From: Bacilli bacterium
GTDB taxonomy: Bacteria > Bacillota_I > Bacilli_A > RF39 > UBA660
Length of the DNA: 64,000 nt
Direction of reading: 5' to 3'
Assembly (NCBI GenBank): GCA_017625395.1
Contig: JAGALD010000044.1
Span: 1,248-65,247, forward strand
A program made the translations under genes and the position numbers. The notes below the pieces were generated by a model. The model was given only the letters and a program-made list of their open reading frames with translations, searched no databases and was not told where the DNA came from. Shown piece after piece: positions 1 through 8,370 of this stretch (position 1 is the stretch's first letter; each line of letters opens with the position of its first letter).

Positions 1-1256
1 ATCAATTCTTTTAATTTATTTTCTAAATATATTTTTAATTTATTATTTGATATAATTAAAATTTCATTATAAAGTTTAATCATTTCATTAGAAACATCTC
101 TTACATATTCTTTCATATGATTATTTATTATATTATCCATTAATTCATCTAGTTTTTTTTCTCTAATAATTGGAGATTCACAAGTAAGTACTCCTTCATT
201 TTTATATTTCTTACATACCCAAGTAGGATTGCTTCTCCTATTTGATCCTGCACATCTAACAAATATTTCATTATGTTCACTACAGATTAGTTTAAATGTA
301 TATCTAGAATCATCAATTATTATTTGGCTTGCCATAATATGAGTATTTCTTGCTTTATGTTTTTTTTCATAAATTAAATTTGCTTTATCCCATAATTCTT
401 CAGATACTATTGGTTCAATCAAATCTGTTTTATAAATTATATGTTCTTCTTTTGGTACCTTAATTTTTTTATGAGTTTTATAACTTTCTACTTTTGTTAA
501 ATTAGCTGTATAATACCCCTTATATCTAGGGTTAGTTAGAAATTTTTTTAAGGTTGTCCCAGAATATGGCTTACCATTTTTATTTTTGTATCCTTTCTTA
601 TATAAAATATCCGCTATTTTTTCAAATGAATATTTTCCAGTTACATATAAACTAAATAATGTTTCAATAATTGGTCTTTCTTCTTCATTAATAATCATTT
701 TTCCATCTTTTCTATAATATCCAGTTAAATTACCACCAATAACTTTTCCATCTTTAATCATTCTTTTAATTCCAAATTTAACTCTTTCTGATAGTTTTCT
801 TACTTCATCTTGAGCAAGTGATGACATCAAGGTTAACCTAAATTCACTATCTGGATATATAGTATTAATATTATCACTTATAAAAAATACTACTGTTCCA
901 TTATTAAGTAGTTCTTCTGTATATTTTATACTATCTATTACATTCCTAGAAAATCTAGATATTTCTTTTGTAACTATTAAATCAAGTTTTCCAGTTTTAG
1001 AATCCTCAATCATTCTTAAAAAATTATCTCTATTTTTTATACTAGTTCCACTTATACCTTCATCTATGTATTCTCCAACTAATTTCCAATTCTTATTTTC
1101 ATTTATCATTTCTTTAAAATAATTAGATTGATTTTCTAAACTATTTAATTGATCATCTTTATCAGTAGATACTCTTGCATAATAACCAACATTTAAATTC
1201 ATATCAAAAATGGTTCTTCCAAGCAATAACTCACTTCTAGTTTTTACAATATTCAT
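1..1256 (-). CDS. large serine recombinase (5' end complete, 3' end runs off the window edge; absent from the ORF track because the frame is not closed in the window)
   Basis: I translated the minus strand from the ATG at 1256. It reads MNIVKTRSELLLGRTIFDMNLNVGYYARVSTDKDDQLNSLENQ (YxRVST catalytic-Ser motif), then LDLIVTKEISRFSRN. A recombinase-domain stretch follows: GKYSFEKIADILYKKGYKNKNGKPYSGTTLKKFLTNPRYKG. After that comes a Cys-containing zinc-ribbon-like region and a helical tail. The frame stays open to position 1. Confidence 0.85.
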   Translation of the reverse strand, partial: MNIVKTRSELLLGRTIFDMNLNVGYYARVSTDKDDQLNSLENQSNYFKEMINENKNWKLVGEYIDEGISGTSIKNRDNFLRMIEDSKTGKLDLIVTKEISRFSRNVIDSIKYTEELLNNGTVVFFISDNINTIYPDSEFRLTLMSSLAQDEVRKLSERVKFGIKRMIKDGKVIGGNLTGYYRKDGKMIINEEERPIIETLFSLYVTGKYSFEKIADILYKKGYKNKNGKPYSGTTLKKFLTNPRYKGYYTANLTKVESYKTHKKIKVPKEEHIIYKTDLIEPIVSEELWDKANLIYEKKHKARNTHIMASQIIIDDSRYTFKLICSEHNEIFVRCAGSNRRSNPTWVCKKYKNEGVLTCESPIIREKKLDELMDNIINNHMKEYVRDVSNEMIKLYNEILIISNNKLKIYLENKLKEL

Positions 1257-1374
1257 TTTCTTGCTCTTTCATTATTTTTTCGTTTGCTAACTTGAATTCT
1301 TCAAATGTTATTTTACCTTTTTGATATAACTCTTTATTGATTATTAATTTTAATTCTTTTAATATTTTTTTCAT
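1237..1374 (-). CDS. 45-aa protein with SHOCT-like motif, overlapping the recombinase start
   Basis: GGGAGG lies 5 nt upstream of the ATG at 1374. The longer 69-aa track ORF would start inside the upstream terminator hairpin. The motif LYQKGKITFEEFKLANEKIM resembles the SHOCT short C-terminal domain. The last 20 nt overlap the recombinase ATG at 1256. Confidence 0.45.
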   Translation of the reverse strand: MKKILKELKLIINKELYQKGKITFEEFKLANEKIMKEQENEYCKN

Positions 1375-1426
1375 ATATACCTCCCACTTAATTTTATTAA
1401 TTAATTTTATATTTATGTATATATAA

Positions 1427-1460
1427 ATTAAAAAAAGATGATTCACTATAAATCATCTTT
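1427..1460 (-). terminator. rho-independent terminator after the amidotransferase/GNAT/ASCH genes
   Basis: A 10-bp stem, aaagatgatt (1434-1443) pairing with aatcatcttt (1451-1460), has a 7-nt loop. On the minus strand it is followed by a T-run. Confidence 0.7.
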
Positions 1461-1481
1461 ATAATACAAATATTAAAATAA

Positions 1482-2201
1482 TTAATTATTTTTAATTAAA
1501 TAATCAATAAATTCTTTAAATATCTGATTTTCTTCTTCTTTATCAGTTATAAATTCTGGATGCCATTGAACACCAATATTAAATCCTTTTCCGTCTAACT
1601 CAAGTAATTCTATAATATTATCATTGGCAAATCCTTTTATTGAATAAGCACCCGGATTATCTATTTTACATTTATGAATGCTATTAACAACAAATTTTTC
1701 TTTTTTAATCATTGAATAAAGTTTAGAATCTTTATCAATAATTACATCATGCATTTCCATATTTGATAAACTAAAATGTTTTTCTTTTAAATAATTATAG
1801 TTTTCCAATGAAATACTTCCACCTGTTGCTAGAGCCATATTAATACATCCGCAACATATACCTAATAAAGGAATATTTTTTTCTATGCAATATTTGGCAA
1901 TCTCTTGTTCATAATCACAAATTGTAATTCCACCTTCTAATATAATACCATCGCATAAATCAATAGTTGAAAACAAATCACTTAATGATTTCTCATCTAA
2001 ATAATAATTTTGATAAGAAAAAGGTTTGCCTTCTTTTATTTGTTTTATTTTACTTTGAGGAATTATTCCAATAGCAACTCCACCATTTATATTAACAGCA
2101 TCTTTAATTTCATTACTAATACATATTTTATTCCAGATAACATCATCACATTGTGGTTTTCCAACAATTCCAATTATTGGCTTTTTTTTCAAATTAATCA
2201 C
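1482..2201 (-). CDS. class I glutamine amidotransferase / peptidase C26 (gamma-glutamyl hydrolase-like)
   Basis: A nucleophile-elbow-like GICCG motif and a C-terminal VQWHPEF motif. The length of 239 aa is typical of PuuD-like C26 enzymes. Confidence 0.65.
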   Translation of the reverse strand: MINLKKKPIIGIVGKPQCDDVIWNKICISNEIKDAVNINGGVAIGIIPQSKIKQIKEGKPFSYQNYYLDEKSLSDLFSTIDLCDGIILEGGITICDYEQEIAKYCIEKNIPLLGICCGCINMALATGGSISLENYNYLKEKHFSLSNMEMHDVIIDKDSKLYSMIKKEKFVVNSIHKCKIDNPGAYSIKGFANDNIIELLELDGKGFNIGVQWHPEFITDKEEENQIFKEFIDYLIKNN

Positions 2202-2793
2202 CTATTTTCTTAATTTTCTTTTTTAAAACTAAATTTCCATCTTTGTGCTTATTTCTTAATTCTTGAACTTCTTGTTCAGAAAGTGGAGTAAATCCATCGT
2301 ATATTTCTAATGCAACTTTTTGTTCATCAAGTTCTAATGATAAAACATTATTACATGCAACCCAATTATCTTTTAATTCAACAGGATGAAAATTCTTGCC
2401 AATTAGATTATAGCCTGTTTTATCAAATAAATGAACTACAGCATTATTATCTAACCTCGTTTGAACAAATATTAACTGTACATTCATTTTTTGTAATAAT
2501 TTAGTCAATTCGCTTATAGCCATAGTTGCAATTCCCTTACCCTTATTATTTTCAAAAACATAAATACCATTAATTTTTACAATTTTATCTGTGCAAAAAT
2601 GTAGCATTAAATAGCCTAGTAATTCATTTTCGTTATTAATAGATAAAATTTGTTTTTCGCCACTTTTAAATTGTTCCAAGTGATTACTTATCCATGTTGA
2701 ATAATAAGGATATTCTTCAATAAATATTGAAGTTAATGCTTCTACTCCCTTATCGAATTCTTCTTGCGTGCTAATTCTATTTAATTTTATCAT
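2194..2793 (-). CDS. GNAT family N-acetyltransferase
   Basis: Acetyl-CoA-binding-type motif VFENNKGKGIATMAISEL. Overlaps the downstream gene by 8 nt. Confidence 0.7.
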   Translation of the reverse strand: MIKLNRISTQEEFDKGVEALTSIFIEEYPYYSTWISNHLEQFKSGEKQILSINNENELLGYLMLHFCTDKIVKINGIYVFENNKGKGIATMAISELTKLLQKMNVQLIFVQTRLDNNAVVHLFDKTGYNLIGKNFHPVELKDNWVACNNVLSLELDEQKVALEIYDGFTPLSEQEVQELRNKHKDGNLVLKKKIKKIGD

Positions 2794-2851
2794 ACAAAAT
2801 CCCCCCTAAATCAATGATTGTTCTAGCACATAACAGCTATCATGTCAAAAT

Positions 2852-3277
2852 CTAGCGATGTTTTTTATTATTCATAATTTCATATTCGCCATCATAATTC
2901 CATATGTTTAATTGACCTTTCGCAGGTATAGGACATATTGGTTCAACATCTTCAAAAATCCAAGCATATCTACCAATCTCATATAGCCCTAAGTTATATT
3001 CTTTTTCTTCTTCCTTTATTGCATTTAAAAATGTTTCATCCATATAAATGCAATCAACTAAATTTCCTCTACAAATTATATTACCATAATTCATCTCTAA
3101 TCCATCAATTAAATTAACAACATAATCATTATTTAAAAACTCCTTAGCTAAATTTTTACCACTTGCATGTATAAACAATTCTCCTCTATAGTTCGTTTTC
3201 CAACTTCTGGTTTCAATTTTTTTATCACCATTCATAATTAGAGTAGCGAATGGTTCTTTTATACTAATAACCTTCAT
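2852..3277 (-). CDS. ASCH (PUA-like) domain protein
   Basis: N-terminus MKVISIKEPFATLIMNGDKKIETRSW is typical of ASCH domain proteins. Length 141 aa. Confidence 0.65.
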   Translation of the reverse strand: MKVISIKEPFATLIMNGDKKIETRSWKTNYRGELFIHASGKNLAKEFLNNDYVVNLIDGLEMNYGNIICRGNLVDCIYMDETFLNAIKEEEKEYNLGLYEIGRYAWIFEDVEPICPIPAKGQLNIWNYDGEYEIMNNKKHR

Positions 3278-3371
3278 TAATAATCCTCCATCTATACAAC
3301 ATTATTATATCACTAATTTTGTCACTTCTTTAATTATTTTATTAATAATTTAGTTTTAAAAATAACATATA

Positions 3372-4157
3372 TTATTCAAAATAATATAATTCAATAAAAT
3401 TATTTTTAAGATCTAATGGATTATATTTTGATATTTCATAACTTTTAATAATATATGGCATAATTAAATCTATGTCTTTTTCTTCTTTTATTTTAAAATA
3501 TCTACATAAGGGTCCATATGCAGTTCTGCCAACAACTTTAAGAATATTGTCATTATCTTCAACATTTAATAATCTGATATAAATACCATATTTCTTCTTT
3601 GAAATGATTGTAAAATTTCTTTTATTTTTAAACATAAGACCTTTTTTAGTGTAATGGGAAGTAACATTTGATCCAATAGAATTAATTTTAACTAATAACT
3701 TATTAAATAAAGTATCAACTGGATTAACTTTTAATTCAGTTAAATAATTATAAAGTTTATTACATAATCCAATTAAGTATGGTATTTCTTTCAAATCTGT
3801 TATTTTTATATAATGACATAGAGTAGAATTTTCATAACCTTTTCTTATAGATAATTTGTTGAAATTATCAAATTGCTTAATATCTTTATAAAAAGAGATT
3901 AATATATCAGATTGATTAACTTGTACTTCAATGATTTTTTTATTTAATTTATAGGCAACATTTTTCATTAAATAATTTCTTTTAATACTATTATTGATAT
4001 TTAATACTTGCTTATCAAATTCATCAAAAAGTTGTATAGCAATATCTTTTTTATTATAAATTATATTTTCATAACAACTTGTATCTACATTTAATAATTT
4101 TGATTTTCTCTTAGATGCTACTTTATCTACATTAGAAATAACATTAGTTTTAGACAT
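3372..4157 (-). CDS. hypothetical protein (possibly DUF5655-like, two similar halves)
   Basis: An ORF of 261 aa with no catalytic motif that I recognise. The halves NVAYKLNKKIIEVQV and NKRNFTIISKKKYGIYIRL recall DUF5655. Confidence 0.3.
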   Translation of the reverse strand: MSKTNVISNVDKVASKRKSKLLNVDTSCYENIIYNKKDIAIQLFDEFDKQVLNINNSIKRNYLMKNVAYKLNKKIIEVQVNQSDILISFYKDIKQFDNFNKLSIRKGYENSTLCHYIKITDLKEIPYLIGLCNKLYNYLTELKVNPVDTLFNKLLVKINSIGSNVTSHYTKKGLMFKNKRNFTIISKKKYGIYIRLLNVEDNDNILKVVGRTAYGPLCRYFKIKEEKDIDLIMPYIIKSYEISKYNPLDLKNNFIELYYFE

Positions 4158-4240
4158 ATCAATTACCTCACTATTAGAATATTGAACTCCATCATATATT
4201 AAATTATATGTAGAACAAACCTCTAGTTTGGTTGAGTAAT

Positions 4241-5344
4241 TTATATTATTTGCAAGTTTTTCTTCAAATTCAAATATGTTCCTGTATTTACTCCAAGATT
4301 ACAAGAGTTTTCTAATACTTGAAGAAAAGTTTGATGACCGTGACCTCCAGCTTTCCAACAACCAATCCTAGCACCACTTACAGTAACACTACCCGAATCA
4401 TAAAAAGTATCCTTCTCTAAGTCAACAACCCCTTCTTCAATTGCAGCAGCAGTAGTTATTATCTTAAAAGTACTTCCTGGCTCATATGACGCCCATATTG
4501 GAAGATTTCTATTAATCGCTTCAATACTATAATTTTGATAATTATTCGAGTCATATGTAGGTCTAGAACTCATACCTAATATTTCACCTGTATTAGGATC
4601 CATTACAACTGCAAGTGCCATATCAGGACTAAACATCGACACAATATTATTAAGCTCCCTTTCTAAAGACATTTGAATATTATAATCAATCGTTAATTCA
4701 AGATTCATTCCTTGCTGTGGTGCAACATATATATCTGACAATTTAAGACTATTGCCCTTAGCATCAGAAAAATACTTAATCGCACCATTCTCCCCAGTTA
4801 AATATTTATCATACTGTAATTCAATTCCAGAAAGCCCTTGGTTATCAATTCCAACATACCCTAAAACATGAGAAAGCATTTCCCCATATGGATAATATCT
4901 TTTAGATTCTTTAACCAAGTATACACCTTCAAACTCATAACTAGATATCTTATCTGCAACATCGTAAGATAATCCACGCCCTTCTGGATGAACTCTTTCA
5001 ATAGAAGTCTCTTTATAAACATGCTTATCCATTTCTTCTTTAGATACCCCTAATATCTGTGATAACGCACTAGAGACTTCTTCCTTATTATCAATCTGTC
5101 CAGGAATTAAAACTAAACTAGTAGTAGTAATATTATCTGCAAGAACTACACCATTTCTATCTAAAATTAATCCACGATCAGCAGCAAGAGGCAAATTCCT
5201 ACTCCACAAGTCATTAGCAAGTAACGTAAGTTTATCATATTCAAATAACTGTATATAAATCACTCTAACTATTACAAATACAAAAAGTAATACAACAATC
5301 AAAAAAACTACTCTTATTCTTTCATCAATCTTTTTCAAAAACAT
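4241..5344 (-). pseudogene. class B penicillin-binding protein (SpoVD/PBP2B/FtsI-like), truncated after the SxN motif
   Basis: An N-terminal TM helix and a PBP dimerisation region are present. The SxxK motif is in EPGSTFKIITTAAAIEEG and the SxN motif in LENSCN. The ORF stops 17 codons after SCN. The KTG box and the whole C-terminal part are missing, leaving 367 aa where class B PBPs are much longer. Confidence 0.7.
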
Positions 5345-6982: not shown

Positions 6983-8370
6983 GAGTGTGTAAATATTTCT
7001 GTGTAAATGGTCTAACCATGATATATGAAGCAAAATTACTTGCTTCTTTTTTGTTATTTAAATAATAACATATAAAATTAATTTTTCAAAGAACTTAAAT
7101 TCTACCATCAAACATGATAGATAATTCACTCAAAATCATGTCCCAATTGCCATATCTAGTAGTCCATTTTTTAATAATATTTTGAGTAGCTAAATATAAA
7201 CATTTCATTAATGATTCATCATTTGGAAATACAGATTTTGTTTTAGTGTATTTTCTAAATGAACGATTTAATGATTCTATTGTATTTGTGGTATACATTA
7301 TTTTTCTAAGTGGTTCAGAATAACTAAAGAATGGACATATGGCATCCCAATTATCTTCCCAATTTCTAAGTGAAGTTGGATATTTATCTTTCCATTTTTC
7401 TTTTACTTTTTGTAATTGTTCATATCCTAATTTTTCATTTTTTGCAGTATAAATAGTTTTTAAATCATTACAGAATGGCCTTAAATCTTTATAATATACA
7501 AATCTTACAGAATTTCTGATCATATGAACGATACATCTTTGTTGGATTGTTTTTGGAAAAGCTGCTTGTATCGCTTCTTTAATACCTGTTAACCCATCAG
7601 AACACATTATCAAAATATCTTTTATTCCTCTGCCTTTTAAATCGTTTAAAACACCTAACCAAAACTTAGCTGATTCGTTTTCTCCTATCCAAATACCTAA
7701 TATATCTTTTTCACCATTCTCCGTTACACCTAAAACAATATAAGCCGCTTTTTTAACCACAGTATGTTCTTGTCTTACACTGAAATGTACTGCATCTATA
7801 AAAACAATTGGATAAACACTATCTAATGGTCTTTCTTGCCATTCTTTTATTTTTAGTAATATTTGATCTGTTATATTACTTACCATTGTAGCAGATACTT
7901 CTATTCCATATAAATCTTGGATTTGTTCGTTTATTTCTCTAGTTGATAAACCTCTGCCATATAAAGATATTATCTTATCTTCTATACCTGAAACATCTCT
8001 TTTATTCTTAGGAACTATTTTGGGTTCAAATTCACCATTTCTATCTCTAGGTGTTTCAAACTCAAACTCACCAAATTCACTTTTTAATGTCTTTTTAGTT
8101 GAACCATTTCTATAATTTGTTTTATTAGTTGTTTTATCATATTTAGAATATCCCATAGATGAATCAAATTCTGCATTCATCATTTCCTGTAATGAGTCTT
8201 TAAATAAATCTTTTATAGCACTACTTAAATCTTGTGCACTTTCTATTTCATAATTTTCTTGTAATATTTTTAATAATTCTTTTCCTTTGCTTTCTTTCAT
8301 ATAAAAAATCCTTCCATTTCTATTTTATCATGGAAAGATTTCCTATTTACACAGATTTATTTACAGACTC
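6983..8370 (-). mobile_element. IS256-family insertion sequence, complete (1388 bp)
   Basis: The terminal inverted repeats are 6983-7010 GAGTGTGTAAATATTTCTGTGTAAATGG and the reverse complement of 8342-8370, GAGTCTGTAAATAAATCTGTGTAAATAGG. They match at 23 of the first 26 positions. A single 401-aa transposase ORF lies between them, and perfect 8-bp direct repeats flank the element. Confidence 0.9.
7095..8300 (-). CDS. IS256-family (Mutator-type) transposase
   Basis: Stretches typical of IS256 transposases: YPIVFIDAVHFSVR, ILIMCSDGLTGIKEAI, QRCIVHMIRNS and TTNTIESLNRSFRK. Length 401 aa. Confidence 0.9.
   Translation of the reverse strand: MKESKGKELLKILQENYEIESAQDLSSAIKDLFKDSLQEMMNAEFDSSMGYSKYDKTTNKTNYRNGSTKKTLKSEFGEFEFETPRDRNGEFEPKIVPKNKRDVSGIEDKIISLYGRGLSTREINEQIQDLYGIEVSATMVSNITDQILLKIKEWQERPLDSVYPIVFIDAVHFSVRQEHTVVKKAAYIVLGVTENGEKDILGIWIGENESAKFWLGVLNDLKGRGIKDILIMCSDGLTGIKEAIQAAFPKTIQQRCIVHMIRNSVRFVYYKDLRPFCNDLKTIYTAKNEKLGYEQLQKVKEKWKDKYPTSLRNWEDNWDAICPFFSYSEPLRKIMYTTNTIESLNRSFRKYTKTKSVFPNDESLMKCLYLATQNIIKKWTTRYGNWDMILSELSIMFDGRI

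Follow-up and report, generated by a model that had tools for sequence, protein, structure and literature searches.

Published targets of intervening elements in sporulation genes are sigK, spsM, spoVFB, spoVR, gerE and yabG; all known elements of this type sit in mother-cell genes (PMC4191935, PMC5595907, PMC10747680), and skin (in sigK), SPbeta (in spsM), vfbin, gin and yin are excised in the mother cell. Here we analysed a 64,000-nt stretch of DNA from a Bacilli bacterium (the window; C11:1248-65247, C11 being contig JAGALD010000044.1 of a 1.49-Mb assembly with 110 contigs and ~25% GC), at whose left end a 4,674-bp element carrying the gene of a large serine recombinase (LSR) splits spoVD. 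In B. subtilis, spoVD is expressed in the mother cell under sigmaE, and cortex formation requires it (PMC517825, PMC3906833). Judging from the structure of the locus, the element is probably a skin-like element that is excised in the mother cell.

Among the closest described systems are the skin elements of sigK, which work with SpoIVCA and Skr in B. subtilis and with CD1231 and the recombination directionality factor (RDF) CD1234 in C. difficile. Like the spoVD element, they are serine-recombinase elements in a mother-cell sporulation gene, with the recombinase gene at the edge and immediately upstream of the 3' fragment (bioRxiv 10.1101/2022.02.25.481979), and precise excision restores the open reading frame (ORF), as predicted here. 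Their reported range of 2.6-48 kb includes the size of the spoVD element. On the other hand, the target of skin is a sigma factor whereas the target here is a cortex transpeptidase, so that the spoVD insertion gates an enzyme and not a regulon. Moreover, the spoVD site is a codon of a catalytic motif, and the spoVD element has no phage-like genes and spreads horizontally between genera. Excision of the spoVD element is predicted from its sequence.

Similarly, gin in gerE of Bacillus cereus ATCC 10987 is a non-prophage element with a serine recombinase (GirC) and a short core, and it depends on a 42-aa accessory protein, the RDF GirX (PMC5595907); the spoVD element has a 45-aa candidate. It differs in that gin is 28.6 kb with three recombinases, whereas the spoVD element is 4.7 kb with one recombinase, whose gene is overlapped by the small ORF. 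Interruption by an LSR with in-frame rebuilding on excision is also shared with yin in yabG of Clostridium botulinum V73 (PMC10747680), SPbeta in spsM (SprA/SprB; PMC4191935), vfbin in spoVFB and vrin in spoVR, but these are prophages or prophage-like and have other target genes. Furthermore, yin is unique to one strain, whereas the spoVD family holds one codon in dozens of species. The best NCBIfam and PDB sequence matches of the recombinase are SCCmec Ccr and TnpX-type transposon recombinases (CcrB at 116.9 bits, far below the cut-off of 900 bits; N-terminal domain of 3G13, 4.6e-40), which share the LSR domain architecture but differ in target site and biology.

The split spoVD gene and its empty site

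The ORF at 4241-5344 on the minus strand encodes 367 aa with an N-terminal hydrophobic helix as membrane anchor (ORF translation, Pfam), a PBP_dimer domain at aa 54-201 (Pfam) and, of the Transpeptidase domain, only the N-terminal third (profile positions 2-107 of 299), and it contains both the STFK and SCN motifs. This domain search bore out the initial annotation, which had recognized a class B penicillin-binding protein (PBP) with a transmembrane helix, a dimerisation region, SxxK and SxN, broken off soon after SxN. The ORF runs on for 18 codons past SCN (LGVNTGTYLNLKKNLQII), one more than was counted there. The GC content drops from ~0.33 to ~0.20 near 4240, at the break. No KTG box or C-terminal part of this gene is present in the window, as had been stated, and the missing 3' half was rightly sought to the left of it: the contig extends 1,247 bases further in that direction, and the KTG/PASTA half lies there at C11:10-873 on the minus strand, directly after the recombinase gene. 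Its frame opens 46 nt after the recombinase stop and reads ...PGFVKLGNLLGKEKLF...GGKTGTAQK...(PASTA)...LLLGE before its stop codon.

The short repeat that had been proposed for the two element ends exists: attL and attR have a common core of 4 bp, AATC, which spans the Asn codon of SxN (Asn349) and the first base of Pro350. The crossover falls inside this core, probably at the AA dinucleotide. The reconstructed attP of the related element in the genome G002 is symmetric around AA at 20 of 23 positions by hand analysis; the attP of our element has weak dyad symmetry, and only the 4-bp common core is definable here. The predicted attB and attP read ...GAAAACTCTTGTAATCCTGGATTTGTAAAAC... and ...CCCGCTCCCGAGAATCTTGGAGTAAATAC..., respectively. 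Homologous P' arms adjoin the N-terminal half in G024, G002, G010 and G013.

Joining at AATC in silico removes 4,674 bp and gives an in-frame protein of 635 aa (...ENSCN/PGFVKLG...), as expected in the initial annotation, namely a full SpoVD by the NCBIfam equivalog TIGR02214 (710.5 bits against a cut-off of 688). PF03717, PF00905 and PF03793, with one PASTA domain, are recorded for the identical natural protein P0001. The only other clear class B PBP of the genome is a paralogue on contig C13 (32% identical), and no second SpoVD was found in the genome.

Uninterrupted genes, also anticipated there, are present in related genomes. Three natural proteins of 635 aa match the joined protein at ~100% identity, and they are encoded by uninterrupted genes on four contigs from other metagenomes (L108, L109, L110 and L117). 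The 5' part of our gene is 99-100% identical to codons 1-349 of the uninterrupted conspecific genes, and the neighbours match our locus, where a HerA-like gene in divergent orientation lies upstream and the gene of an M48 peptidase downstream. The empty-site model is 98.8-99.5% identical in nucleotides to the conspecific contigs and aligns to them gap-free through the junction, the conspecific attB is exactly the predicted ...GAAAACTCTTGTAATCCTGGATTTGTAAAACTTGG..., and empty and occupied sites differ by exactly the 4,674-bp block including the recombinase. It is evident that the element was inserted by the LSR at the AATC core with exact ends.

The inserted allele, with the exact 367-aa truncated product, occurs on nine contigs from at least six samples (ERZ28654259, ERZ28654397, ERZ28654337, SRR12529202, SRR12529165 and SRR36269568). 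These contigs are at least 99.9% identical to the genome over the compared stretch and therefore represent one clone spread between samples; one of them spans the whole locus and the downstream genes in one piece. The insertion is real, precise, strain-variable and evolutionarily recent in the species.

The cassette and its element family

The order of the parts in gene orientation is attL, DUF5655, ASCH, GNAT, C26 amidotransferase, terminator, 45-aa ORF, LSR, attR and the spoVD 3' half (Table 1). The initial annotation had listed four same-strand genes past the break, a terminator and a small ORF overlapping an LSR that leaves the window edge. All of these were recovered, the four genes as DUF5655, ASCH, GNAT and Peptidase_C26/GATase, the terminator as a hairpin with U7 at ~1434-1460 (-10.3 kcal/mol, z -2.86), and the LSR with Resolvase, Recombinase and Zn_ribbon_recom domains. 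Two statements on the small ORF had to be changed: its conserved frame is 45 aa (1237-1374) and not the 69-aa frame started by GTG, and the label 'SHOCT-like' found no support, as there was no Pfam family at E <= 0.01 and no family match in NCBIfam, PADLOC or PHROGs.

ORFs of 42-47 aa are found at the same position in 26 loci, our own included, together with a shorter variant in L100. Their pairwise dN/dS is mostly 0.1-0.5, so that purifying selection on the ORF seems likely. We name it a candidate RDF, a guess based on how small it is and where it lies. The cargo terminator upstream was missed by a simple terminator scan because its stem is AT-rich, and it was found by folding; most of the related elements aligned have a different hairpin and T-run at the same place (by eye; our own and that of G024 were folded). 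Typing of the promoter from the conserved TCATATT...AATAAAAT was tried and not relied on, since it can be read as sigmaE-like or sigmaA-like, and a sigma-70 scan gave no excess of sites.

All three LSR domains are above the cut-offs (PF00239, 1.6e-31; PF07508, 3.5e-21; PF13408, 7.7e-06), the protein matches the integrase family phrog_95 (4.9e-103), and it has the RVS motif with Ser30 in YARVSTD. Just past its stop codon, at C11:885-915 and in most related loci, there is a conserved motif resembling TATGTCGAAT, after which come a few A and T bases and a T-run; it lies 35-45 nt from the crossover, outside the usual LSR half-site.

PHROGs matches of the element are confined to the integrase, the acetyltransferase, the amidotransferase and the unknown ASCH family, and there are no phage structural, lysis or replication genes and no conjugation genes in it. 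No relatives of its attP and recombinase were found in IMG/VR, and the best match in a phage collection is 40.6% identical. A 7.1-kb virome record named 'Bacteriophage sp.', with a recombinase ~40% identical, was rejected as a relative, its DNA being unrelated and without any spoVD piece. By its gene content, the element is a non-phage cassette. With regard to the cargo, the DUF5655 gene is common to the elements of L059, L061 and L083, and a defence role of the cargo found only one weak candidate match in PADLOC (PDC-S18, on this same gene). The ASCH gene is called as 98 aa in two copies of window 2852-3277 (L111:10068-10364 and L115:3185-3478) and as 141 aa here and on the other clone contigs; the DNA differs by 2-3 bases over the compared stretch, and the call in L115 reaches the contig end.

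Table 1. Features of the split spoVD locus, in window coordinates unless marked C11; a slash marks the junction at the core
Feature	Position	Strand	Evidence and remarks
Intervening element, 4,674 bp	C11:870-5543 = window -377 to 4296 (1..4296 in window)	-	Join and gap-free empty-site alignment
spoVD 5' part	4297..5344	-	Codons 1-349 and first base of Pro350; STFK at aa 291, SCN at aa 347-349
attL	4272..4322	-	Core AATC at 4297-4300; gene strand ...TCTTGTAATC/TTGGAGTAAATAC...; element side reads TTGGAG...
Element-derived tail of truncated ORF	4241..4296	-	18 codons (LGVNTGTYLNLKKNLQII) and stop; P' arm of attL
Cargo 1, DUF5655, 261 aa	3372..4157	-	PF18899, 9.3e-13; attL end
Cargo 2, ASCH, 141 aa	2852..3277	-	PF04266; phrog_3193, 1e-33 (function of phrog unknown)
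Cargo 3, GNAT acetyltransferase, 199 aa	2194..2793	-	PF00583, 1.5e-12
Cargo 4, Peptidase_C26/class-I glutamine amidotransferase-like, 239 aa	1482..2201	-	PF07722, 3.8e-24; 236 aa as called on other contigs
Intrinsic terminator	1427..1460	-	12-bp stem, U7; divides cargo from recombinase module
Conserved region upstream of recombinase module	1375..1426	-	26-element alignment: TTTTTTCATATTTA...TAATAAAATTA..GGGAGGTatatATG; candidate promoter and GGGAGG ribosome-binding site
Conserved 45-aa ORF (MKKILKELKLIINKELYQKGKITFEEFKLANEKIMKEQENEYCKN)	1237..1374	-	Overlaps recombinase start by 20 nt
Large serine recombinase, 527 aa	1..1256 in window (418 of 527 aa); gene end C11:920	-	46 nt before attR core
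attR	C11:870-873 (window -377 to -374, outside window)		...CCCGAGAATC/CTGGATTTG; gene side reads CTGGAT...
spoVD 3' part	C11:10-869	-	aa 350-635, KTG and PASTA

Among 40 related species genomes, the spoVD orthologue is intact in 12. It is split at the same codon in G002, G003, G004, G010 and G013 of the same genus and in G024 and G022 of other genera, and G002, G009, G010 and G013 have a split at a second site, around aa 415. Within the genus, 7 of the 15 species having the gene are split at this site or the second site. In the related species genomes, the downstream piece is always immediately preceded by an orthologue of the LSR in the same orientation. When public collections were scanned with the recombinase, 29 loci from metagenomes and 45 from genomes were obtained, 72 of which encode a clear relative, and in nearly all of these with enough flank the LSR gene is at the element edge, co-oriented and 35-130 bp before the 3' fragment. 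Record titles of the related loci name uncultured Bacilli, 'Tenericutes' and Erysipelotrichaceae metagenome-assembled genomes (MAGs) from goat, rumen, rabbit and human (Hadza and others) gut.

The terminator, upstream region, 45-aa ORF, LSR and P arm form a conserved module in this family, and the cargo is variable. Element size ranges over 2-17 kb, and the smallest element seen is that of G024 (~2.8 kb). L033, L062, L065 and L086 have the same cassette in full; when L033, L065 and L086 are compared with our locus, 80-99% of positions agree within the element but ~60-75% in the spoVD sequence on either side, and the steps in identity fall in the 100-nt bins holding attL and attR. Moreover, hosts with SpoVD proteins of only 57-79% identity (L059, L030 and L060) carry recombinases that are 96-99% identical, and therefore the element moves horizontally between species. 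These comparisons showed that the element family is horizontally mobile and that its targeting of this codon is fixed.

The second site is the conserved ...GQGVSVTPIQQ... (~aa 413-416), which is used by another recombinase clade, 40-41% identical to ours (G002:C1:1205405-1235982; L028/L029 of G009; L022/L023 of G010), and in the complete genome G002 spoVD is in three pieces. A third site is inside the SxxK (STFK) codons, ~aa 291-294, in L066, L089 and L098, with recombinases 42-44% identical to ours.

Tandem arrays are common among the related loci. Junctions resembling attP past the recombinases of L032, L035, L043, L063, L075, L078 and L080 were considered as circles and rejected: their downstream arm comes from another element (67-73% identical), a sign of tandem arrays. 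In such hybrid junctions the P arm after one recombinase is joined straight to the P' arm of a different element; L075 is the same as G010 C37, and L084, the same as G004 C5, is a further case. There are seemingly three recombinase modules between the spoVD halves of G004.

In addition, relatives have a spoIVA that is interrupted around aa 122, and an LSR gene immediately precedes its 3' piece (G010:C8:10657-11025 and G010:C32:7226-9974; also G004 and G021); the split in G010 is internal and recombinase-flanked. A spoIVA split is possible in our own genome, where the two pieces break off with their contigs (aa 121 at the C97 end, aa 361 at the C74 start).

Two differences between the strains were noted beside the element. 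An IS256/Mutator-family transposase gene (window 7095-8300, between herA and a radical-SAM gene) is a strain-specific insertion, since a 1,386-bp block is absent exactly at this site in L108 and L109 and present in the clone contig L111. The M48 peptidase gene downstream of spoVD (C34:215-1804) is one ORF of 529-530 aa in empty-site strains and two ORFs of 84 and 440 aa in the clone, probably owing to a recent frameshift or nonsense mutation.

Proposed mother-cell excision and its alternatives

We regard excision in the mother cell as the probable role of the arrangement. In the vegetative cell and the forespore, spoVD would stay split. Once the mother cell sporulates, its LSR would recombine attL and attR together with the 45-aa protein as candidate RDF; this would release a 4.7-kb circle and rebuild spoVD, letting cortex synthesis go ahead, and the spore chromosome would retain the element. 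It is consistent with this scheme that excision would restore the intact ORF in silico and that both the product and attB occur naturally in conspecifics. The genome has a Spo0A over the cut-off and uninterrupted genes for two sigK/sigE-type sigma factors (one with a spoIIGA-like gene beside it) and for SpoVAD-like, SpoIIID-like and SpoVE-like proteins. The 5' piece of spoVD has a dN/dS of 0.02-0.17, split and intact hosts alike, and 0.03 at dS of 0.3-0.5 in the split species G002, G010 and G013. Since the element has no transfer genes and is absent from IMG/VR, it probably has to be of little cost to the host in order to persist. This evolutionary argument for continued use of the split gene is supportive, not decisive.

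Several points weigh against this scheme. The attB and attP junctions are both absent from our own assembly, which contains neither an excised circle nor a rejoined attB on the same background. The promoter of the recombinase module may be read as more than one class, and the RDF role of the 45-aa ORF is conjectural. The genomes G006, G014 and G023 have lost sporulation genes altogether, which indicates that selection on sporulation is not universal in the lineage. Moreover, the insertion is recent, with empty-site strains 0.5-1.2% different, and thus the intact halves in our own genome are uninformative on selection after the insertion; because horizontal transfer is frequent, intact pieces elsewhere could likewise reflect young insertions.

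An unlikely alternative is that the SxN codons are a mere landing site and the insertion a dead end, in which spoVD is knocked out, the cells make no proper cortex or do not sporulate, and the pieces will decay. The young age of the insertion fits this, as decay is not yet expected at 98.8-99.5% identity to empty-site strains, and the recurrent loss of sporulation in the family, the nonsense codon in the related 3' piece of L031, the partly decayed look of G016 and L066, and the fresh insertion sequence and split M48 peptidase gene next door in the clone point in the same direction. However, a stop codon was found in only 1 of 49 complete 3' pieces and 0 of 20 complete 5' pieces (69 of 70 intact), in hosts whose SpoVD is 47% to 89% identical to the query, and dN/dS is equally low in split and intact hosts. 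Almost half of the species in the genus having the gene are split, yet Spo0A and SpoIVA are kept. An element without transfer genes that killed spore transmission should not be this common, nor does the presence of the clone in at least six samples favour a dead end.

It is quite unlikely that the element is a reversible vegetative switch, where low-frequency excision and reintegration in growing cells would give a mixed population of sporulation-proficient and -deficient cells, as in active lysogeny. Alleles with and without the insert are found side by side in the species, even in a single cohort study, the upstream region is also readable by hand as a sigmaA-like promoter (TTCATA, 17 nt, TAAAAT), and yin was found excised at all growth phases (PMC10747680). 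But the empty alleles are on other strain backgrounds, with 18-38 mismatches in 3.6 kb, and are not excision products of the clone, and the insert is present in all nine clone contigs.

Finally, the possibility that there is no insertion but a PBP that is short by nature, an assembly error or a recombinase of a separate element, two of which had been raised in the initial annotation, is refuted by identical junctions on nine independently assembled contigs, by the 3' half on the same contig, by orthologues that continue past the break, and by the recombinase and cargo lying inside one insert that is missing as exactly that 4,674-bp block from the empty site.

Two observations on the history of the pieces may be added. 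The last spoVD piece (aa 412-635; L017, L023 and L025) is near-identical in G002, G010 and G013 (dS 0.01-0.02), in which the first pieces have dS of 0.3-0.5; a recent exchange of the 3' piece among them seems likely, perhaps together with the second-site element. Dating of the split by co-divergence of element and host failed, as dS of the second-site recombinases (0.38-0.92) does not track that of the host pieces (0.01-2.7), which indicates exchange.

Implications for sporulation in gut Bacilli

No report of an element in spoVD was found in the full text of the open literature searched. As far as the sequence comparisons allow, spoVD is a new target gene and the cassette a new family within the sporulation intervening elements, and spoVD is likely a new rejoined sporulation gene. 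The natural empty site within the same species makes our case unusually clean. If the proposed excision is true, spoVD would represent the mother-cell genes of the early (sigmaE) class among the split genes, with the break inside the catalytic motif of an enzyme. The element family is common in uncultured gut bacteria whose spoVD is usually annotated as a pseudogene, and by that annotation they would be wrongly scored as non-sporulating. In addition, the recombinases are a natural panel of LSRs with known attB/attP pairs and a candidate 45-aa RDF, which should be useful for recombinase biology.

LSR cassettes are found at the spoVD motif codons STFK and SCN and at the TPIQQ stretch, up to three per gene and sometimes in tandem, and similar elements split spoIVA in relatives. 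We tentatively raise a possibility that spore formation in reduced-genome gut Bacilli depends on a set of programmed mother-cell excisions. If this were true, several independent pairs of recombinase and RDF would need to fire together, and the terminal mother cell would be a place where excision is free of cost. Such a system would parallel, in these bacteria, the rearrangements of several elements in cyanobacterial heterocysts.

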